From Escherichia coli (GTDB taxonomy: Bacteria > Pseudomonadota > Gammaproteobacteria > Enterobacterales > Enterobacteriaceae): a stretch of DNA of 64,000 nucleotides. The notes under the pieces are model-generated. The model searched no databases. It was not told where the DNA came from and was given only the letters and a program-made list of their open reading frames with translations. The DNA lies in the NCBI RefSeq assembly GCF_044324875.1, contig NZ_CP172188.1, one strand, 5' to 3'. The first letter of the stretch is position 1; each line of letters begins with the position of its first letter. A program made the position numbers and the translations under genes. Of the stretch, positions 1,098-36,796 are shown one piece after another.

Positions 1098-4000
1098 GTG
1101 AAAATAACATTCTCCATACCCTCTCAACCGTACCGCATAGCGGATTTTTTACGGTTTAGAGGGGGTAATCCTTTGGATAAACTACTTCATTCAATCAGTG
1201 AAGCCTCCAGCTTAGGCGAACTGATTGAAATTGTTAGTCGGTTGCATAAATTACGTGCTGTTGCGACCTTTGGCGTTAAGAAAGTCGATGGTGTCAGCAT
1301 TCAAAAAACACGGCGGGCAGCAAACAACGCCGCAGTAGAGCTTCTTAATTCCCTTCCGCCCGGCTTCGATGGGGCGAAATTAACTGACGAACAACGTCAG
1401 ATTCTTGCCGGGTATACCGGTGAAGGCGGCCTGACAGATGGTGAGGGCAGCCAATACGAATACTACACACCACAGTTTATGGCTGAAGGTATATGGGATC
1501 TGTTTGCTGACTACGGTATTGATGGCGGGCACGTACTGGAACCATCAGCGGGCACAGGTATTTTCCAGGAGACAAAACGGCAGGGCATGATAATGACCAG
1601 CGCCGAACTATCTCCGATTTCCGGTCGAATAAACCAGCTTTTGCACCCGGAAGACGATGTGAATATCGGGGCGTTTGAGGCGCTGGCGGCGAAAGACGCA
1701 ATGTATGACCACGCTGTTGGTAACGTACCGTTTGGTGAAGGGCGTTCCGGCGTTGCCGGGCTTGATCCGGCATATGCAAACGAGAAGAACGTTGGCAATT
1801 ACTTTGTGCTGCGCACGATCGACAAGGTTAAGCCTGGTGGACTAATTGTATTGGTGGTGCCGAATGGCATGACCGATGGTACGAAATACAAAAAATTGCG
1901 CGATAAAGTCAGCCGTAAAGCGGAATTTTTGGGCGCACATCGTATGCCTTCTGGTACGTTCAGCGAATCCGGTACAGATACAGTGGTGGACGTATGGGTA
2001 TTGCGTAAACACCCGGAAACCTTCCTGGAGATGATCCCCGACACGGATGATGCAACGCTCAAGTCGGCAAACGTCCTTTGGGATACCTTCCTCAAAGGGA
2101 AATGGTTTACAACCGAAGGGAAGCGATTTGTTTACGGCGATATGGAGCGTACCAGCTTCCGCAATACCCTGGTGGTGAAAAAGGACGGTCGTGTATCCAA
2201 TGAGTCGATGAAAAACGCTCTATCGCGCCGCTTTGAAAGCCGCATTAATTGGGATTTGCTTGGCGTAACTACTCAGGCATGGCAGGGCGCGAAAGTGGGC
2301 GATAAACGCCTTGTAGGCGGCATCTGGCATGAGTTTGATGGCCTGAAATGGGTCAAGGACGCGACAACCAAATCCTCCGCGCTTGATGTAAATCGATATG
2401 GTGTTACGACGTTTGGTGATCTGCAGATCGCGTTTCAGTCAACAAATGGCATTCTGGCGTTGTCATGGGACCAGATATCGGCGATCGCGTCCGACTATCC
2501 GTCGGTTATCAGTGATGAAGTAGCGGCAATGATTCGCTTTGCTGGCAAGCAGAGAGAAAAAGACAGAGAACGCGTTATGCGCGGCGCACTGATAGGGCAG
2601 TTGATCAACAAGGCGCTTGATAAGCGTAATCTGGGGGAAAATGTTGATGATGAACTTGCTGATGCCGCGCGCCTGGCGGAAGCCGAAATTGCGAAGTATG
2701 GTCCGCCGCACGCGATTAAGCTGAATGGGATTGCTGAAGCTGGCGCTAAAAACTGGATGACTTTCACTGGCAACGTGAAACAGGACGGCTCTGCTTCTGA
2801 CCTCCTTGCTGGACGACTTGATGTAACGGATGGTGCTGCCGGTATTGACTTTACACGCCCGGAACAAGTTGTAACCCACCTTTTCAGTGACGTGGCACTT
2901 AATCCAATCACACTGGACGATTTTCGTGAGGCGTTTGCTGGCGAACTGCCAGAAGACGAAGATGCTGCTCTGGAATACCTGGCGAAATTTGATGATATCG
3001 CTATTGATGGGTATGGCTGCCTGCTGCCGATGGACCGCGCCACCAGCGGCGATATTGCAACCAAAACAGCATTGCTGGTGGGCTGGCGTGATGCGTCAAC
3101 AGGTGAGCAGAAAGCGAACTTTGAGCGTCAGTTGGCGAAAATCGAAGAGAAACGCATTTTCACGCCACTAAATAAAGTCACCGTTAATCTGAACGCCCGC
3201 TGGCTGGATCGCCGCTTGATAAAAGAGTTCCTGGCAGAGCAGGGCTATGACGAGTTTAAGTATACAGAACCCGACCTTAAGGTTGAGGACGGCATTCTGG
3301 TATCTCCGGACGATTACGAAGGTAAGGACGGGGTATTTACTGGCTATCAACTACGAACCGTAAACGGCAAAAACGGGAATGAGTTCAAGAAGGCCAACAA
3401 TAAAGACGGCTTCCTGAACCAGTTAGAAAACTACCTGAACGGCATTAAACCGCGTGGGCAGAACGCTAACGAGTACCTGGATAAGATTGCTCAACTGGAA
3501 ATTAGCTTCAACGACTGGTTACGCACTCACCCGCAGGCTGATCAGATAGCCCGCGACTATAACGACGCATTTAATGGCTTCATCCCGTTTACGCATTCTG
3601 ACGCACCGCTTGGCCTGGAGGGGATTAGTGGGAAGCGCATTCCTCTGACTTATCAGAATGAAGAAGTTCGGCGCTTGTCAGAAGATGGGCGCGGCATCAT
3701 GGGATTTGGTACCGGGCTGGGTAAAACCACGACCGCGCTTGCGCTTGAGGCGTATAACTTCGAAACAGGTCGCACTAAACGCACGTGTATTGTTGTTCCG
3801 AAGGCGGTTTATCAGAACTGGTATCACGAGGCACAGAGCTTCTACAGTGCTGATGCCTTCGCCAATATGATGTTTATCGGTCTGGATGAAGTTCGTGATG
3901 ACAGCGGAAATATTCTGACCGCGCCGGTGCTTGATGAAAATGGCGAACCACGCCTCGACAGTAACGGGCAGCCTCTTACCCGAAATGTTGTGAAAGAGTC

Positions 4001-7000
4001 CGCCAGCGCCGTTATCGTTCAGCGCATGAACATGATCCCGTCGTCAAATTGGCGAACGGTCATCATGACAAAAGAGCAATTCGCGTCTATCCCGCTACGA
4101 GAAGAAACCATTGAGGAAAACTCACAGCAAGCGGTCTTTAATGCTGTGGAAATGGGGCGTCTTGACCTGGCATCTGGCAAACACCGTGACGCGCAGAAGA
4201 AGAACAAGATTAAGGACCAGGCCGCAAATACCGGTACAACGAAGAAGCAGAATATCCCGTACTTTGAGGATATGAACTTCGATAGCGTAATTGCCGACGA
4301 AGGGCATAACTACCGCAACTCCTTTAGCGCCGGGCGCGAAGCGGGGCAACTGGCATATTTGCCTAACCCGGCAGTATCCAAAATGGCCCGCGACATGGCT
4401 GTAAAAGCTGCGTACATGATGAAACGCAACAACGGGCGTGGTGTGGTTATGCTGACGGCAACACCGCTGGTGAACAGCCCGATTGATGCTTTCAACATGC
4501 TGTCTACTGTCATTCCGCAGGAAGAGTGGATGCGCATGGGTATTGTTACGCCGGATGATTTCGTTCGCGTGTTCGGTAAAACAGCCACAGTTCAGGTTCA
4601 GAAAATTTCCGGTGAGGTGGAAGAGAAGCAGGGACTGGTGGGCTTCCAGAACCTGGATGGTCTGCGTGGTATTTTCCATCGCTGGACTACTCTGAAGACT
4701 GCTGCGGACGTCGGGGCGACGGTAAAAATCCCTGATATTGTCGAGAATACCTTGCAGATCCCGATGACAGGAGAGCAAGAGGCCATTTACGAAGAACTTC
4801 GTAAGCGTGCACAGGAGTTAAGTAGTAAAGATGCGCTGACGGTCGATGAAAACGGGCATATCACAAACGAAAAACCGGATGATTTCATCTTCTCCATCAT
4901 CCGCGACATGGATAAGGTTGCTATAGATCCTGATCTGTATGCCAGTGCGATTACATTCCAGTTCCCCGTTGAGCTTGCAGACAAGGTAAAAGCTATTGCT
5001 GATGCCCTGCCAAAAGTAGCTGGCGGTAAAGTGGCAGATGATGTAGACGAGGCCGAAGAAGATGGCGCTGGTGGGCTGGTCAGTACGCGTACCAGCAAGG
5101 TAGTGAAGACCACCTTTAGCGAACATCCGTCGCATGTTGAAATACGTGCTGGCATTGAACTGGAAGCTGAAATACTGAAGGCCATTGCGGCTGCCGGTAT
5201 TGATATGCAGCAGGTATCACACCCCATCCCGCCGAAGTATGCCGCGCTGATCGAAAACCTTCGTGAAGGTCTGAAGAACGGTAAACAAATCGTCTTCATT
5301 GATGAAAAAGCCCAGCACCAGAAGCTGCGCCGTATTATTGCCAGTGCACTGCAAATGCCGGAGCAGGAGATAGGCATTATCAATGCGACGACAGTTAGCC
5401 AGGCTGGCGGCGTCAAGCTGAAGAAGGTGAATAAGCCGACTGAACCTACGCCAAATAAAAACGGTGAATACAAAGAAGGTGCATGGGAAACCTACTACAG
5501 CAAACTTGCCCAATATGAGGATTATCTCTCAGCTAAAAATGATGCTGGCCTTGAGGGCATGGAAGGTATTGCCGCCGACTATAACGAAGGTCGCACGCGC
5601 ATCATAATCTGTAACAAGAAGGCTGAAGTAGGTATTAACTTGCACATCGGGACAACCGATATCCACCATCTGACACTACCCTGGACTCCTGCCAGTATCG
5701 ACCAACGTAATGGGCGCGGCGCTCGGGTAGGCTCACCACAAGAAAAGGTCAATGTTCACTACTATTGTGGCAAAGGCACATTTGATGACTTCCGTCTGGA
5801 TACGCTGAAACGTAAGAAGGACTGGATCAATATGGTGATGACCTCCGACATGTCAGAGATCGCCAATGGTGATGCGGATGACGCAGATGAACGCGCCATT
5901 ATGCTGGCGGCAAATCCGGAAGAACGCCGTGCAATCATGAGTCGTCAGGCGCAAGAGCGTGAAGAACGTCTGAAACTGAAAGCCCTACGCGAAGCCAATA
6001 ATGCTCTCGATAACTACCTGAAAGCGGCGAATGCTGCCGGGAAAGATATCGGCATGATGGAGACAGAACTGAAAAGCGCGATGGAGCAGGTAGAGCATTA
6101 CCAGCGCAATCTTGACGACCTGATTAAAGCGGGGACGAACAGGAACGGGCAGAAATATGTTCTGGAACAGTTGCGAGACTACAGAAAACGTGTGCGGGAG
6201 CTACGCTTTGCGATCACCAGAGCTAAAGACGCTGACACCGTTATGAAACGTTCTCGTGGTGATCTGGAACGTGCGATTAAAGCCGGGGTTCTGGAGCTTG
6301 ATGCCGATGTATTGCAGAACCCACAGGAGTATGTACGCACTGAGAAAAATATCTTGTTGCACAAGGGCAGCCATTATCGCGCGATCATCGATGAGAATCA
6401 CAATACGACAGCAATTGTTCGTGTTACCGCCATTGATGCGGAAAGGGGCGGGTGTACGTGCCGCATATCCTGGCTGGATGTGGCTAGTCGTTACTCTCGT
6501 TCTCCGGGGACGGCATTATTTTTGCCCTTTAACCTGATAATTGAATCGGTAACCTTTGAAGAGGGAGTTGCAGAATCGCGTGAAACAGCTGCACGTGGTG
6601 TTCAATGCCACCAGCTATCAACAACACTTACGCGCGATCAGTTCTATGATGCTATTCGCAATGGGGTAATGAATGTCACTGCCGGGAAGCCTAGTAGAGT
6701 ATGGGGCGGTGGTTCAGCTATTAAATACTGGGCTTATCGCACCGATGATGGTCAGATTGCACTGTCATCGGCTTATGATGGCGTAATAGGTCAAAAAATC
6801 GGGCGAGCATCGGATATAGCGCCTGAGCGGTGGATTTACCCTGATGGCAACGATGAGGCGCTGAAGCGTGAAGTGGCAAAAATACAAGCCAGTGATAACC
6901 CGCTGAATGTCGTGGACGGCGAGGGATTCCTCCAGGCATTGTATGGATATGATTACATCCAGGGAATGCAGGCATGGGGGTCACAGGCCACGATGGATGA

Positions 7001-8012
7001 TGTTTCCCAGGAGTTTGAAAACTGGATGGCAGGGCGTGGTTTGTCCGGTCGCTCACTTAATAAAGTTACTTCTGAAGATATTCTTAGCCTGTTCCGTAAA
7101 CCGTCCGGAGAAGGGCTGGAATCTTTCTGGAAGACCGTGGTGGCATACCGTTTATTCCAGGGCAGGATGAAAGCCTTTAGCAACACTGATGACATTGAAC
7201 GGATGTTTAATCAGGTGAAGGCCGCGAAAATTACGGCGAAAATTGAGAAAACACGAGCTGCGCTGGTGGCCTGGCGCGATGCATTGTTTGAGCAATATAA
7301 ATCACTCAGCGATGCCGATGGCTGGTCGGCATTGGAGCAGCTGGCTAATAATGGTGTCGATGGAGCGAAATTAGCCATTGTTCAGGCCGATAATCCTCTG
7401 GATTCGCCAGCAGCGCAGTGGATTAAGGTGGGGGCTGTCATCAATGCATTTGATGAAAAACACATTAGTAAGGACGATTTTGCTGATGCTGTTTCTGTTA
7501 ATCGCCTGGTAGAAATGGCTACCCGTCGCGCCCGTGAGTTGAAAGACGGCGACTATGTGAATGAGTTGCCGGATGCGCTCAAATCGGCAACGTGGCAGGA
7601 CTATGTATCGCTGAAAAACGGCGGGGCCACTGAATCAGAGATCGCGGAAAGGCTTGAGCAGGCTGAAAGCAAAAGAGAAGAGCAGGCGGCAGTGGCTGAA
7701 TCCAGAGCTGATGAAGCGGCGAATGATGACTATATCATTGTGGTTAATGATAAGCCGATTCGCGCTAAGGCGCGTGTTCGCGGGCGCTGGTGGAGCGTCA
7801 GCGAAGACGTTGGCGCGGTTTATCTCATTGCCGACCAGCCAGGTTCCTCGACAATACGGAACGCCAAAGACGCGATTAAGAAGATTGGCGGGCGTTTCTG
7901 GAATTTTGAAGCAAACCCGGTTGCTGATGTGAACTTTGACCGTCCGGCATGGATGGTATCTACGCGTTACTCGGTAGATGAACTGCGTAAAATAATCGCC
8001 GATGCGGCCTAA
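1098..8012 (+). CDS. darB: DarB-like giant antirestriction protein (N6-adenine DNA methyltransferase + SF2/SNF2-like helicase)
   Basis: 2304 aa single ORF; SAM-binding motif LEPSAGTGIF, catalytic-type motif NVPFG; helicase motifs GFGTGLGKTTT (Walker A), DEGHNYRN (DEAH-like), QRNGRGARVG (motif VI); size and domain order match phage P1 DarB. Confidence 0.8.
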   Translation: MKITFSIPSQPYRIADFLRFRGGNPLDKLLHSISEASSLGELIEIVSRLHKLRAVATFGVKKVDGVSIQKTRRAANNAAVELLNSLPPGFDGAKLTDEQRQILAGYTGEGGLTDGEGSQYEYYTPQFMAEGIWDLFADYGIDGGHVLEPSAGTGIFQETKRQGMIMTSAELSPISGRINQLLHPEDDVNIGAFEALAAKDAMYDHAVGNVPFGEGRSGVAGLDPAYANEKNVGNYFVLRTIDKVKPGGLIVLVVPNGMTDGTKYKKLRDKVSRKAEFLGAHRMPSGTFSESGTDTVVDVWVLRKHPETFLEMIPDTDDATLKSANVLWDTFLKGKWFTTEGKRFVYGDMERTSFRNTLVVKKDGRVSNESMKNALSRRFESRINWDLLGVTTQAWQGAKVGDKRLVGGIWHEFDGLKWVKDATTKSSALDVNRYGVTTFGDLQIAFQSTNGILALSWDQISAIASDYPSVISDEVAAMIRFAGKQREKDRERVMRGALIGQLINKALDKRNLGENVDDELADAARLAEAEIAKYGPPHAIKLNGIAEAGAKNWMTFTGNVKQDGSASDLLAGRLDVTDGAAGIDFTRPEQVVTHLFSDVALNPITLDDFREAFAGELPEDEDAALEYLAKFDDIAIDGYGCLLPMDRATSGDIATKTALLVGWRDASTGEQKANFERQLAKIEEKRIFTPLNKVTVNLNARWLDRRLIKEFLAEQGYDEFKYTEPDLKVEDGILVSPDDYEGKDGVFTGYQLRTVNGKNGNEFKKANNKDGFLNQLENYLNGIKPRGQNANEYLDKIAQLEISFNDWLRTHPQADQIARDYNDAFNGFIPFTHSDAPLGLEGISGKRIPLTYQNEEVRRLSEDGRGIMGFGTGLGKTTTALALEAYNFETGRTKRTCIVVPKAVYQNWYHEAQSFYSADAFANMMFIGLDEVRDDSGNILTAPVLDENGEPRLDSNGQPLTRNVVKESASAVIVQRMNMIPSSNWRTVIMTKEQFASIPLREETIEENSQQAVFNAVEMGRLDLASGKHRDAQKKNKIKDQAANTGTTKKQNIPYFEDMNFDSVIADEGHNYRNSFSAGREAGQLAYLPNPAVSKMARDMAVKAAYMMKRNNGRGVVMLTATPLVNSPIDAFNMLSTVIPQEEWMRMGIVTPDDFVRVFGKTATVQVQKISGEVEEKQGLVGFQNLDGLRGIFHRWTTLKTAADVGATVKIPDIVENTLQIPMTGEQEAIYEELRKRAQELSSKDALTVDENGHITNEKPDDFIFSIIRDMDKVAIDPDLYASAITFQFPVELADKVKAIADALPKVAGGKVADDVDEAEEDGAGGLVSTRTSKVVKTTFSEHPSHVEIRAGIELEAEILKAIAAAGIDMQQVSHPIPPKYAALIENLREGLKNGKQIVFIDEKAQHQKLRRIIASALQMPEQEIGIINATTVSQAGGVKLKKVNKPTEPTPNKNGEYKEGAWETYYSKLAQYEDYLSAKNDAGLEGMEGIAADYNEGRTRIIICNKKAEVGINLHIGTTDIHHLTLPWTPASIDQRNGRGARVGSPQEKVNVHYYCGKGTFDDFRLDTLKRKKDWINMVMTSDMSEIANGDADDADERAIMLAANPEERRAIMSRQAQEREERLKLKALREANNALDNYLKAANAAGKDIGMMETELKSAMEQVEHYQRNLDDLIKAGTNRNGQKYVLEQLRDYRKRVRELRFAITRAKDADTVMKRSRGDLERAIKAGVLELDADVLQNPQEYVRTEKNILLHKGSHYRAIIDENHNTTAIVRVTAIDAERGGCTCRISWLDVASRYSRSPGTALFLPFNLIIESVTFEEGVAESRETAARGVQCHQLSTTLTRDQFYDAIRNGVMNVTAGKPSRVWGGGSAIKYWAYRTDDGQIALSSAYDGVIGQKIGRASDIAPERWIYPDGNDEALKREVAKIQASDNPLNVVDGEGFLQALYGYDYIQGMQAWGSQATMDDVSQEFENWMAGRGLSGRSLNKVTSEDILSLFRKPSGEGLESFWKTVVAYRLFQGRMKAFSNTDDIERMFNQVKAAKITAKIEKTRAALVAWRDALFEQYKSLSDADGWSALEQLANNGVDGAKLAIVQADNPLDSPAAQWIKVGAVINAFDEKHISKDDFADAVSVNRLVEMATRRARELKDGDYVNELPDALKSATWQDYVSLKNGGATESEIAERLEQAESKREEQAAVAESRADEAANDDYIIVVNDKPIRAKARVRGRWWSVSEDVGAVYLIADQPGSSTIRNAKDAIKKIGGRFWNFEANPVADVNFDRPAWMVSTRYSVDELRKIIADAA

Positions 8013-24636: not shown

Positions 24637-25016
24637 CAAATATTGGAACCATATAGTTCACGTAGTTTTTTCGCTACTGAAGATACGGGGATTTCACCAG
24701 TTGCAGCCCCCACTGCAAGCTCCACCAGCACGGGATCATCATATACCTGTATACCGTTACGGCGTAGAAATAGCAGCGCACTGTTTAGCGCGGTACGCTT
24801 ATTGGCATCATTGAATATATGCCCTCTCGCCGTAGCCACCAGGTAGGTGGCGGAGACTTCGAAAAGGTCGGTGATCTCTTCGTAGGCAACTCTGGCCTGA
24901 ACTCTCCCGATAATGGCCTCTGCCCTACCCGGATCTGACATTCCCGGCAGGCCGCCGTAGCGGCTTATATTCGCATCATGAAGCGCAATAAGTTCTTCCG
25001 GTGATATATGCCTCAT
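24636..25016 (-). CDS. doc: Doc toxin (Fic-family kinase) of the phd-doc addiction module
   Basis: 126 aa [40 protein letters not shown]...; essentially the P1 Doc sequence as I recall it. Confidence 0.93.
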
Positions 25017-25237
25017 TATCGGTTAACCAGTTCCTTGTTGGTGGAGTCCAGGGTGTCAAACAGGGATGCAAATTCGGCATCCAGCGCCGCTTTTTTGTAG
25101 GCTTCAAAAGTAGCCTTGCTGACAATTACTGCTGGCTCACGGCCTCTGCGGGTGATTTCAACCTCTTCCCCGGCTTCAACATTGTTGAGCACTTCAGAAA
25201 GGTTGCCACGCGCGGTACGGAAGTTAATGGATTGCAT
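25016..25237 (-). CDS. phd: Phd antitoxin
   Basis: 73 aa from second Met: [49 protein letters not shown]...; overlaps doc start. Confidence 0.93.
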
Positions 25238-32721: not shown

Positions 32722-32993
32722 TTGGTTTTCTCCTGTCTGAACATCACTATCATCAGGTCGCCTTTTGTCGCTATCCTCGCTGTTGTGCCTGGTTCAATGC
32801 GGCTAAGTTCAAATGCGTCATAGAACGCCTCCAACGCTTTCTGGCGTTTTTCCTGTTTGCGGCGCTTTCCCCACTGCTTTAGAAAAACAGAGGCCGCCCA
32901 CTTCCCCGCACTGAACATGATGTAAAACCAACCGAGAAGTGCCAGACCGGTATTTAGGAGCGTATCGATCGTTATTGTCGTGTCGATATTCAC
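32718..32993 (-). CDS. hypothetical small membrane protein
   Basis: 91 aa; hydrophobic N-terminal segment GLALLGWFYIMFSAGKWAA. Confidence 0.4.
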   Translation of the reverse strand: MNIDTTITIDTLLNTGLALLGWFYIMFSAGKWAASVFLKQWGKRRKQEKRQKALEAFYDAFELSRIEPGTTARIATKGDLMIVMFRQEKTK

Positions 32994-33757
32994 TGGTTGC
33001 CTCCTTTGCGAAGCTGGTCGGCGAACAAACGTACACCAGACGCTTCACTGCGTAGAAACTTAACGGCATAATCAAAACCACCTCGTTCTGCGTCGTCTGC
33101 TGCGTTGTCGAGGTTATCTGCGTACATCTCTACCCCCTGCGCACGCACTTCAGCCAGGAAAGCGTCGGTGGCTGGGGTTTCAACACGGATGCTGTCGCGC
33201 AAGATGAAAAATGCATTGAGCATTCCTGTCTCTGGCACTTCATCCTGATGCTTCTCATACGCATCAAGAGCCTTCATCATCTCAGCTCCGAATGGTTGAG
33301 GGTGCACAGACTTCAGCTCCGCATTCTCCGCCGCCAGCACCACGCGTTCGCTCTCCAGTTCTGCAATGCGCTGTTTTGCGGCATCAAGTTCAATCGATAA
33401 TTTTTCCAACTGCTCTTTATGCTTCTTGTATTCCTGATATGCGTGCCAAGACTGACCTTTGCGCACACTATCCGTGATATCAGTAATCTGTTCTGGTGTT
33501 AGCGTGGTCAGTGGCTGTGCTGGGAAAATCAGCACTTTCCCGGAATCCCAATCAAAACCAGCGTGAATTGACTGAACCTCAACTGAAGGTGTTGAACCAA
33601 TGCTGCCAGGCGAATGAACAACGATCGTTACATCCATATCGCGACGATGGCTGTGGTTGTTGGACAAAATACGATTCACCAACTCAGAAAATTTGGAAAA
33701 TTTCATGCTGATTCCCTTTGCTCTTCCTGGATAATGTTGTTGCAATCTTTCACGCAC
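32990..33757 (-). CDS. Ea22-like family protein (paralog 3, mosaic)
   Basis: C-terminal [17 protein letters not shown] ... QLRKGGNQ shared with 29034..29714; coiled-coil middle. Confidence 0.55.
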
Positions 33758-34065
33758 TCGTTGCAGATGAAAACGTTGTCCCCGGCAATTAACTTTTTAA
33801 CGGTGTGCTGGGATTTGTTGCAGAAGCTGCAATAAAGCGTTGGACTGGCTGATACGGATGGTGCGCCAGATGTCAGCCGCGCGATGTCGTTCTTGCGACG
33901 CAATATCACACGGCTGCACTCGACCAGCATCTCCGGGGATATCTCCTCCTCCGTAGCGAGCGTTTCTAATCGTTCGAGTATGTGGAAGGCTTTTTCCTGG
34001 GTAATCCTGGGTAATTCAGCGTTACGCTCTGCCAGTTGTGCGGGCGTTAAACCTTCAGACTTCAT
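33703..34065 (-). CDS. protein with ClpX-type N-terminal zinc-binding-domain homology (stand-alone ZBD)
   Basis: 120 aa; C-terminal [39 protein letters not shown] parallels ClpX [39 protein letters not shown]. Confidence 0.6.
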
Positions 34066-34372
34066 ACACTCTCCTTTCGAAATAAACGTACTGATTAATC
34101 ATGCCCAGGGGCATTTCGAGTTTTTCCGCGATCTCACGGCGGGGAACACCACACTGATGAAGCTGCCGTGCCAGTTCTATATCGCTCTGCCGGTATTTGG
34201 CTGACGGATGAAAGTCACCTTTCAGAATCATTCTGATCCCCAGTTCCCGCGCTTTAGTCCTGACAGCATCTCCGGTACGCCCGATCAGCCTCCCTATACT
34301 CTCGACTGTCATAGTTCCGGCACACTGGCGGAGTATCATGATTTCTGCCCTTCTCCATCCCCGCCATCTCAC
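34055..34372 (-). CDS. putative HTH DNA-binding protein
   Basis: 105 aa; two HTH-like segments ([24 protein letters not shown]; [22 protein letters not shown]). Confidence 0.4.
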
Positions 34373-34519
34373 GCTGACATCCTCTTAGACATAAACTCAA
34401 CAAAACGAACTGCATCTTCAGAAACAACGCCGCATGACTTCAGCGAAAAACCGCCGAGAACCCTCGCCCAATGCGGGCGGGGAGGAAAGGCGGAAAAGCC
34501 CGAAGGGCTTTAAAAAAAA

Positions 34520-34945
34520 TCATTCCGGCGTTGACTGGTTTTGAACGTAAGCCCTGAGTGTTTCAATCGTTGCTCCTCCGGTACTACATGCAAAGTAGGC
34601 TCTCGACCAAAGCAAGCCTGTTTTGCTCTGTGTTCGTAAATGTGTGTTTTGTTGACGTAGCAGACGTGACGATACTGATTTCAAATTATTCACCATTACG
34701 CTGACTGCCAGCTTTGGCGGATAGGCAACCAGTAGATGTACATGATCTGCTTCTCCATCCATTTCAAGAATTTCGCATTCAAGTTTTGCAGCAGCGGAAC
34801 AAAAAGCTTCCCGTAGTTGCTCTATCATGCAGCCGTCAAAAAGTTTTCTGCGGTATTTTGTAGTGAAAATTAAATGCACAACGAGCTTACTCACGCTGTG
34901 ACGTTTCCGAAGGAATCCCTCAAGGGATTCATGCTGTTCGCTCAA
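34520..34945 (-). CDS. tnpA: IS200/IS605 transposase TnpA (HUH Y1)
   Basis: 141 aa; HUH motif DHVHLLV and catalytic Tyr region SRAYFACSTGG. Confidence 0.9.
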   Translation of the reverse strand: MSEQHESLEGFLRKRHSVSKLVVHLIFTTKYRRKLFDGCMIEQLREAFCSAAAKLECEILEMDGEADHVHLLVAYPPKLAVSVMVNNLKSVSSRLLRQQNTHLRTQSKTGLLWSRAYFACSTGGATIETLRAYVQNQSTPE

Positions 34946-35001
34946 TTGAAAAAACGCCTCAATTTGTTAAAATGATTGAATAATATCAATGAGCGCTGAG
35001 T

Positions 35002-36180
35002 ATGTTAAGAGCGACAAAAGTACGCATATATCCCACTACTGAACAGGCTGAGTATCTCAATGCCCAGTTCGGTGCGGTACGTTTTGCGTACAATAAAGCT
35101 CTTCACATCAAAAAACATGCTTACCAGCGATACGGGGTGAATTTAAGTCCGCGCAAAGATTTAAAGCCGTTGCTGTCTATAGCGAAGAAGTCCCGTAAGT
35201 ATGCCTGGCTCAAAGAGTTTGATTCAATGGCATTGCAACAGGCAGTAATTAATCTTGATGCGGCATTTTCCAACTTTTTTAATCCGAAGCTGAAAGCACG
35301 GTTCCCGACGTTTAAACGTAAACACGGGAGACAATCGAGCTATCACTGCACCGGAATCAAGGTGCTGGATGATGCCATTAAGATCCCTAAACTGAATCTG
35401 CCGATAAAGGCGCGTATACACCGTGTAATTACGGGAAAAGTAACGAGCATAACAATTACTCGCAATGCCGCTGGGGAATATCACGCATCCATCCTTTGTG
35501 ATGACGGTATTCCCGCGCCAGAGAAACCCACGTATCTGGAAGAAGAAAAGATTACTGGTGTGGACATGGGATTAACAGATTATGCCATCAAATCGGATGG
35601 TAATAAGGTTGGTAATCCTCGTCATCTCATCAATGCCAGTCGTAATCTGCGACGCAAACAAAAAGCGTTATCCCGCAAGCAAAAGGGAAGCGCGAACCGT
35701 AAAAAGGCCAGAATCCGTCTGGCAGCGTTACACGAACGGGTGGCTAATGCCCGTGCTGATTTTCAACACAAGCTCTCTCGTGCAATTGTTGACGAAAACC
35801 AAGCGGTAATTGTCGAGACGCTGAAAACAGCCAACATGATGAAAAACCACAATCTGGCAAGAGCGATAGGTGATGCAGGCTGGCATAGCTTCATCACAAA
35901 GCTGGAGTACAAGGCAGCGGAAAAAGGCGTTCACCTGGTAAAACTCGACCAGTGGTTTGCCAGTTCGAAAACGTGCCATTGTTGTGGTTACAAAATGCCG
36001 GAAATGCCGCTTCATAAACGCATCTGGCGATGCCCTGAATGTGGAGCAGAGCACGACCGCGATATCAATGCGGCGCTCAATATCCGGCAAAAAGGAATAC
36101 TGGAACTAAAGGCGGCGGGACTCGTCGTTTCTGTCCATGGAGGCCAGCGTAAATCCGTCGAACAGACGGTAGCGGCCTGA
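35002..36180 (+). CDS. tnpB: TnpB (OrfB; RNA-guided RuvC-like endonuclease)
   Basis: 392 aa; N-terminal MLRATKVRIYPTTEQAEYLNAQFGAVRFAYNKAL; C-terminal zinc finger CHCCGYK...CPECG and RuvC-III-like DRDINAALNI. Confidence 0.9.
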   Translation: MLRATKVRIYPTTEQAEYLNAQFGAVRFAYNKALHIKKHAYQRYGVNLSPRKDLKPLLSIAKKSRKYAWLKEFDSMALQQAVINLDAAFSNFFNPKLKARFPTFKRKHGRQSSYHCTGIKVLDDAIKIPKLNLPIKARIHRVITGKVTSITITRNAAGEYHASILCDDGIPAPEKPTYLEEEKITGVDMGLTDYAIKSDGNKVGNPRHLINASRNLRRKQKALSRKQKGSANRKKARIRLAALHERVANARADFQHKLSRAIVDENQAVIVETLKTANMMKNHNLARAIGDAGWHSFITKLEYKAAEKGVHLVKLDQWFASSKTCHCCGYKMPEMPLHKRIWRCPECGAEHDRDINAALNIRQKGILELKAAGLVVSVHGGQRKSVEQTVAA

Positions 36181-36796
36181 GAAGTGGGAAGCCTCGCCCG
36201 ACAGGGCGGGGAGCAGTCACATAATTCATTGCGTCATTAGGTAGCGGATTAGTTGGTTCGGCATTTGCCAGGGATTGAGATAAACGCGTGATTAATTTGA
36301 CCATTCTCCGCTGCCGGAGGTTGTATCCTTCAGCTAAAGACAGGTAACTGGAAAGGGTATTGCTTAAGCGGGCGCGAAGCTGATCCGTGCCGTGACATTC
36401 AATAGCAACATCACGTAACGCATCGACCAGTTCACGGTAAAGATGCGCTGCCATTCTGCAATCTGTGTCAGATGGTGCTTCATAAATTACCGTCAACCCC
36501 AGTTTTTCAGCCAGAGCGTGTTCTGCACGTGCTCCTGCGGACACATCCCATCCCTTAAGCAGATAGATCGCATCAGCAGAACGCACCATTGCCAGGCAAA
36601 TATCCATGTATTCACTCTGGCAAAGGCCACCAGGTAACACAGCTGGATTCAGAACGATATGCCCTTCAGACATCAGCTCGCTCGCTTTCGCATTAAACGC
36701 CGCACGGTTGTAGTCTGGATAACCAGTCATCGGCCCCGCGATGTAAATTTTCAAAACACGTTTCACCATCAAAATTTCCCCAAAATCGTGACGCAA
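36077..36796 (-). pseudogene. DUF4406 / nucleoside 2-deoxyribosyltransferase-like gene with 3' end replaced by IS sequence
   Basis: N-terminal KIYIAGPMTGYPDYN Rossmann-like motif; the last ~50 codons (below ~36226) read into the IS right end. Confidence 0.45.

Follow-up and report, generated by a model that had tools for sequence, protein, structure and literature searches.

The gene at positions 33703–34065 (minus strand) of the window, by which we mean the whole 64,000-nucleotide stretch of Escherichia coli DNA analyzed here, encodes a protein of 120 amino acids that would most likely interfere with ClpXP-dependent degradation. The protein is built of an N-terminal tail, a helical hairpin, a linker, and a zinc-binding domain (ZBD) of the ClpX type, in that order. 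The ZBD is already part of public annotation, in that RefSeq records for near-identical plasmids give its product the name "ClpX C4-type zinc finger protein," and naming the domain is thus not novel. What is new is the two-domain architecture, the main home of the family in P2-like prophages, the old and selected capture of the ZBD, and the recombinant 5′ end of the present allele with its frame-restoring duplication. Full-text literature searches found no paper on stand-alone phage ClpX ZBD proteins.

The ClpX-type domain and its family-specific companion

The ZBD occupies residues 77–119 (33709–33837, minus strand), as judged from Pfam, from structures in the PDB, and from a position-by-position comparison with ClpX. 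The Pfam family zf-C4_ClpX (PF06689) matches residues 78–114 over positions 2–39 of its 39-position model (E = 2.2e-17), and a phmmer search of the PDB returned the ClpX ZBD structures 1OVX (E = 1.6e-15) and 2DS5 (E = 6e-15), followed by full-length ClpX chains. Alignment with E. coli ClpX is gapless over 42 residues, of which 69% are identical. Residues C79, C82, C101, and C104 (codons at 33829–33831, 33820–33822, 33763–33765, and 33754–33756, minus strand) align with the ClpX zinc ligands C14, C17, C36, and C39 in the shared spacing C-x2-C-x18-C-x2-C, and all four cysteines are invariant in 32 distinct ZBDs of the family. An earlier inspection of the letters alone (the sequence-only reading) had assigned the C-terminal 40 or so residues to the ClpX ZBD, with its four cysteines, and had proposed a profile search for zf-C4_ClpX as a check; that search has now been run, and the assignment is borne out at a level well past chance.

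The same inspection had found no AAA+ module. Indeed, the protein ends at residue 120, and when full-length ClpX and ClpP were compared by tblastn with the whole 64-kb window, only the ZBD segment was matched. The segment is therefore a stand-alone ZBD and not a gene fragment lying beside a decayed motor. Nor is the product a ClpX equivalog: the model NF003745 gave 47.1 bits (cut-off 359) and TIGR00382 gave 43.2 bits (cut-off 370.75), and their matches were confined to HMM positions 5–50. The description of the protein as a free ZBD is thus apt as regards the missing motor and mistaken as regards a bare domain, since residues 21–65 form a second conserved domain. In common with the N-domain of ClpX, the protein has its fold family (by sequence), the cysteine spacing, the F16/I46 region, the KLIAG strand, and the high identity given above. 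Unlike ClpX, it carries no AAA+ motor, has its ZBD at the C terminus instead of the N terminus, has substitutions at G18, E23, P31, and L42 (ClpX numbering), and begins with an unrelated helical hairpin.

For a comparison of conservation, the 32 family ZBDs were set against 38 distinct ClpX ZBDs, a set that was taken from the query's own matches and is biased toward similar sequences. The family retains, in ClpX numbering, L12, Y13, S15, F16, K19, Q21, V24, L27, I28, A29, G30, and V33, and also I35, E38, V40, C43, I/V46, and I47. Conserved among these are the V-x-K-L-I-A-G (KLIAG) and V-x-I strands of the ClpX ZBD; according to the paper on structure 2DS8, the SspB tail reportedly pairs with the β-strands of the domain. 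The hydrophobic region marked by F16 and I46 is conserved as well, and in ClpX this region, to which TF, SspB, and RssB bind, coincides in part with the lambda O site (PMC7804408). Four positions that are 79–95% conserved in the ClpX set, biased as it is, are altered in the window protein (G18N, E23T, P31D, and L42D), and most family members have likewise changed them (G18 to N or K, E23 to A or T, P31 to D or E, and L42 to V, A, or D). Because position 42, which adjoins the I46 patch, is an aspartate in the window allele, its ligand specificity may differ from that of ClpX. One family member (P0021) has a ZBD that is 79% identical to that of host ClpX, with the segments AGPSVYIC and VDLCN intact.

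The N-domain (residues 21–65; 33871–34005, minus strand) is a helical hairpin that is conserved and occurs only in this family. AlphaFold2, run with the family alignment, gave a mean pLDDT of 76.6 and a model in four parts: a short N-terminal helix (residues 8–16); the hairpin, with helices at 23–39 and 44–65 (pLDDT 83–89); a linker (residues 66–76; 33838–33870, minus strand) in which pLDDT dips to 64–71 and no secondary structure appears; and the ZBD, which in the monomer consists of two short strands and a C-terminal helix (102–119). The linker is predicted to be flexible, and its length and sequence vary within the family. No fold match was found for the N-domain. Purifying selection is equally strong on the two domains, with dN/dS of ~0.2–0.5 in the N-domain and in the ZBD.

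At the level of the whole protein, PHROG 6797, which is listed there as of uncharacterized function, provides a full-length match (E = 7.7e-55; residues 16–119 against profile positions 3–106 of 107). Many entries of ~110 amino acids belonging to the family bear the legacy GenBank/RefSeq name "carboxylate--amine ligase." We found no ligase family among the Pfam and NCBIfam matches, and the 120 residues are fully covered by hairpin and ZBD; the name is therefore a misnomer and looks like a propagated annotation error. Membership in a defense system was set aside, as neither the window protein nor two of its relatives (P0013 and P0036) matched a PADLOC-DB defense HMM at E ≤ 0.1.

Genomic setting, age, and a recombinant 5′ end

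The start codon, an ATG at 34065, is preceded at a distance of 5 nt by a Shine–Dalgarno sequence, AGGAG (34071–34075, minus strand), read from the sequence, and the gene ends in a TGA at 33703–33705 (minus strand). Open reading frames on the opposite strand within 33703–34065 are not among the annotated genes of homologous records. Just upstream lies a gene (34055–34372, minus strand) for a putative helix-turn-helix (HTH) DNA-binding protein of 105 amino acids (phrog_323, "transcriptional regulator," E = 1.8e-27, with weak HTH matches in Pfam), whose stop overlaps the start of the ZBD gene by 11 nt. Downstream is an Ea22-like gene (32990–33706, minus strand; phrog_368, E = 1.5e-55), which is likely to start, as annotated in the homologous plasmid, with the ATG at 33706, which shares an ATGA with the stop of the ZBD gene, and not with the GTG at 33757 given in the list of open reading frames. 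Successive genes down to ~32189 overlap by 4 nt in start–stop junctions of the ATGA/GTGA type, which suggests translational coupling. Both neighbors lie within a tightly packed run of genes on the same strand, the operon on the ppp/pdcB side. The HTH gene was considered as a conserved partner and rejected: it adjoins the ZBD gene only in this backbone and is not beside it in P2-like loci or in phage D6.

An insertion of the IS200/IS605 family (34444–36216), with tnpA at 34520–34945 (minus strand) and tnpB at 35002–36180 (plus strand) in the list of open reading frames, begins 72 nt upstream of the HTH gene. It is exactly at this element that collinearity with plasmid pF719-4 is interrupted; the flanks of the element are collinear with that plasmid and share a 4-nt overlap. 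The element truncates a DUF4406 gene, being inserted 75 nt before its stop, and it cuts the operon off from its original upstream region. A promoter-like site of tnpA (35008–34980, minus strand) is directed into the operon, and expression of this copy of the ZBD gene may therefore differ from that of its intact relatives.

The window also contains, at 24645–25237 (minus strand), a P1-type phd/doc addiction module, the presence of Phd having been stated from the sequence; Phd is 100% and Doc 92% identical to the P1 sequences. The connection that had been drawn between Phd and the ZBD protein looks incidental, however, because phd/doc belongs to the P1-type backbone, whereas the family resides mainly in P2-like prophages; within 5–6-kb flanks of the P2-like loci examined, no phd/doc is present. 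Elsewhere in the window, a very large open reading frame of 2,304 amino acids (1098–8012, plus strand) might encode a DarB-like antirestriction protein, which is our guess from its size on a P1-type backbone.

The bulk of the family consists of proteins of 105–113 amino acids, starting MTTSHSAITQEKAF, that are encoded in P2-like prophages of Escherichia and its relatives. There the gene lies on the same strand as replication gene A and shortly downstream of it, within the variable stretch that precedes the portal gene. Other carriers are phage P88, D6 (orf93), and further E. coli phages. The region in the window is collinear with D6 and P1-like E. coli phage-plasmids, showing 95–99% identity to several non-mobilizable plasmids of ~90 kb and a mosaic pattern of identity to D6 itself. 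The phage-plasmid allele (at least 80% of the gene) is present in 99 of 5,426 complete E. coli genomes (~2%), almost always on a plasmid. Genes of the Ead/Ea22 type adjoin the family genes in most of the backbones examined, and no neighbor gene is conserved across P2-like loci, D6, and the window, so that the protein probably works with no phage partner dedicated to it.

How old is the capture of the ZBD? When family members are compared with E. coli clpX, amino-acid identity in the domain is 69–79%, and identical residues share the same codon in just 36–50% of cases. This saturation of synonymous sites rules out a recent capture of host clpX and points to an old one that selection has held near the ClpX sequence. 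The ZBD module also recombines with neighboring genes of the Ea22-type coiled-coil class: in one family member (P0029) an Ea22-like coiled-coil N terminus is fused straight to the linker and ZBD.

The window allele is itself a recombinant, its 5′ end being derived, as judged by sequence identity, from a D6 orf91-type gene. Codons 1–17 (34015–34065, minus strand) are identical at 17 of 17 positions to the start of D6 orf91, and in other plasmids this 5′ segment and the remainder of the gene give separate matches. In D6 (locus L001, 6086–7427), orf92 lies between the orf91-type gene and orf93, the ZBD gene, which are two distinct genes. Exactly at the junction of the borrowed start and the body of the ZBD gene, comparison with D6 orf93 and orf91 revealed a perfect 10-nt tandem duplication of ATTACCCAGG (33996–34015, minus strand). 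With the second copy, the borrowed start is read in the frame of the ZBD gene, and the protein gains the residues LPR; as read from the sequence, a single copy would shift the frame and lead to a stop after ~12 codons. The duplication preserved expression of the protein once its start had been exchanged.

Proposed competition for ClpX partners and the alternatives

The sequence-only reading had proposed that a free mimic of the ZBD could titrate adaptors or substrates, or poison dimerization of the ClpX N-domain, and we consider this hypothesis plausible, if incomplete, with precedent for the titration that it proposes. The best reading of the evidence, which we hold tentatively, is that the protein may be a decoy that vies with ClpX for those adaptors and substrates that depend on the ZBD. 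The observed part of this model comprises the identity of the domain, the retention of its ligands and of surface residues, the purifying selection on it, and placement in an early operon. By the model, the C-terminal half would adopt the fold of ClpX's Zn(Cys)4 N-domain, binding zinc, and would probably dimerize by analogy with it. It would present both the hydrophobic surface and the β-strand edge on which ClpX docks the adaptors SspB and RssB and N-domain-dependent substrates such as lambda O, MuA, and similar proteins. Made in larger amounts than ClpX at an early stage of lytic growth, the phage protein would bind the partners of ClpX in solution, with the result that ZBD-dependent degradation by ClpXP would be competitively blocked and ZBD-independent degradation (ssrA tags alone) would be left largely intact. 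The N-terminal hairpin would probably add oligomerization and avidity, or a second, specific partner. The likely payoffs would be stabilization of phage or host proteins that ClpXP normally removes, or a block of defenses that rely on ClpXP for the degradation of an antitoxin.

Precedent for such competition comes from work on ClpX itself. ClpX without its ZBD is unable to perform the breakdown of sigma-S that RssB mediates (PMC7226468), and the isolated, purified ZBD, supplied in trans in vitro at 5–20 µM, inhibits RssB-mediated sigma-S degradation by 0.6 µM ClpXP (PMC7226468, Fig. 1d). The ZBD is likewise required for degradation of lambda O (PMC7804408). Support for a decoy also comes from the full-length match to the domain, with its four cysteines and the conserved residues of the ligand region. 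Translational coupling ties the family genes into closely packed operons, early or accessory, and in P2-like prophages they follow gene A directly; placement in an early operon fits a role in host takeover. Three points count against the decoy: the alteration in most members of G18, E23, P31, and L42, which are strongly conserved in ClpX; the equally constrained N-domain, which a simple decoy would not need; and the roughly 10–30-fold excess that the isolated ZBD needed in vitro (PMC7226468). An AlphaFold2 prediction for a homodimer fused through (GGGGS)6, with a paired alignment, yielded no confident dimer (pTM 0.43, with ZBD pLDDT down to ~60).

The least improbable of the alternatives, though unlikely in itself, is that the zinc ribbon serves as a mere dimerization scaffold and that the hairpin carries a function unrelated to ClpXP, such as an interaction with nucleic acid or with a protein of phage or host. 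This would account for an N-domain that is both family-specific and constrained, for the drift of some surface positions conserved in ClpX, and for the joining of the ZBD module to other helical N termini, as in the Ea22-like coiled-coil fusion. Fusions of zf-C4_ClpX to unrelated proteins, for example cyanobacterial sigma factors, are reported (PMC11119718) and are in keeping with a scaffold. A scaffold would be expected to drift more than this one has, however: conservation extends beyond the cysteine ligands and the core to exposed residues of the ligand region (F16, K19, Q21, I46, and the KLIAG strand), and these have been kept at saturated synonymous divergence.

We regard as doubtful a second alternative, in which the protein docks on ClpX, either by forming mixed dimers with its N-domains or by binding the ring, so that the hairpin blocks the pore or recruits cargo; ClpX would then be poisoned, or retargeted to new substrates by an adaptor that brings its own N-domain. 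Two domains joined by a flexible linker are typical of adaptors, and the N-domain is constrained as strongly as the ZBD. The close match of some ZBDs to the host domain, 79% in the case of P0021, is as expected if the host ZBD must be matched, and cross-linking has identified the ClpX ZBD as a constitutive dimer (PMC7226468). On the other hand, the N-domain has no fold match, and there is no conserved neighbor gene to serve as a partner. Moreover, dimers of the ClpX ZBD are very stable, and exchange of subunits with pre-existing ClpX would therefore be slow.

Finally, the possibility that the gene is a non-functional fragment of captured clpX or a spurious open reading frame, as its shortness, its uninformative legacy name, and its mosaic 5′ end might suggest, is very remote and effectively refuted by its strong ribosome-binding site and translational coupling, by dN/dS below 1 in both domains, by an architecture kept across P2-like, P1-like, and other phage backbones, by synonymous sites that are saturated relative to clpX, by a duplication that restores the frame, and by the lack of any AAA+ remnant or ClpP similarity in the 64-kb window.

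Known modulators of proteolysis and implications

The decoy reading, which we continue to prefer, places the protein beside several known systems. One is the isolated recombinant ZBD of ClpX, likewise a soluble, motor-less ZBD and the mechanistic precedent for a decoy (PMC7226468), but that molecule is a laboratory construct, whereas the phage protein, known from sequence, is a natural and selected gene product with an extra domain. The anti-adaptors IraP, IraD, and IraM and the prophage-encoded AppY are also small and spare the ClpXP substrate sigma-S by acting on its delivery and not on the protease (PMC10057817; PMC7226468); the Ira proteins do so by sequestering RssB (PMC10057817). They have no relation to the phage protein in sequence or fold, and none of them copies a domain of ClpX.

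Phages are known to modulate host AAA+ proteases by other means: PinA of T4 and gp4.5 of T7 act against Lon, Gp53 of SPO1 acts on ClpCP in the manner of a competing adaptor, and lambda encodes RexB. These proteins resemble the phage ZBD protein as early modulators of ATP-dependent proteolysis in the host and differ from it in having other proteases as targets and unrelated folds; to our knowledge, none of them copies the docking domain of the protease itself. Nearer in sequence are ZBD-only miniproteins of 57–65 amino acids, found among phage records and in BFVD, from Pseudomonas phages (PP9W2 and the phi1 type) and Caulobacter phage Cr30, an example being the 65-residue "Clp protease" of PP9W2 in phrog_12435. 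They too are stand-alone, phage-encoded ZBDs of the ClpX type, but they lack the N-terminal hairpin and fall into separate PHROG families. Their presence in unrelated phages, those of Pseudomonas and Caulobacter, suggests a strategy that recurs among viruses. We also note that the jumbo phages PA5oct, Atu_ph07, and Phosso have genes annotated as ClpX.

ClpXP controls sigma-S, components of the SOS response, cell-division proteins, several antitoxins including Phd of P1, and such phage proteins as lambda O and MuA. A broader proposal, to which we give little credence at present, is that temperate enterobacterial phages of the P2-like and P1-like types carry a dedicated, two-domain mimic of ClpX in which the ZBD would hijack the docking code and the N-domain would bring a specific target, such that degradation in the host would be reprogrammed. 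The phage ZBD protein is small, easily expressed, and directly testable, and it is widespread, the phage-plasmid allele alone being found in ~2% of complete E. coli genomes and many P2-like prophages also encoding the family. If it does mimic ClpX, it would be the first case shown of a phage factor that affects ClpXP through mimicry of a domain and would provide a ready-made tool for separating, in vivo, N-domain-dependent from N-domain-independent degradation by ClpXP. Under the broader proposal, phage replication or regulatory proteins, for example, would be protected, or toxin–antitoxin defenses in which ClpXP triggers abortive infection would be disarmed; and, taken together with the miniproteins of Pseudomonas and Caulobacter phages, mimicry of a protease's own docking domain would be a general viral strategy.
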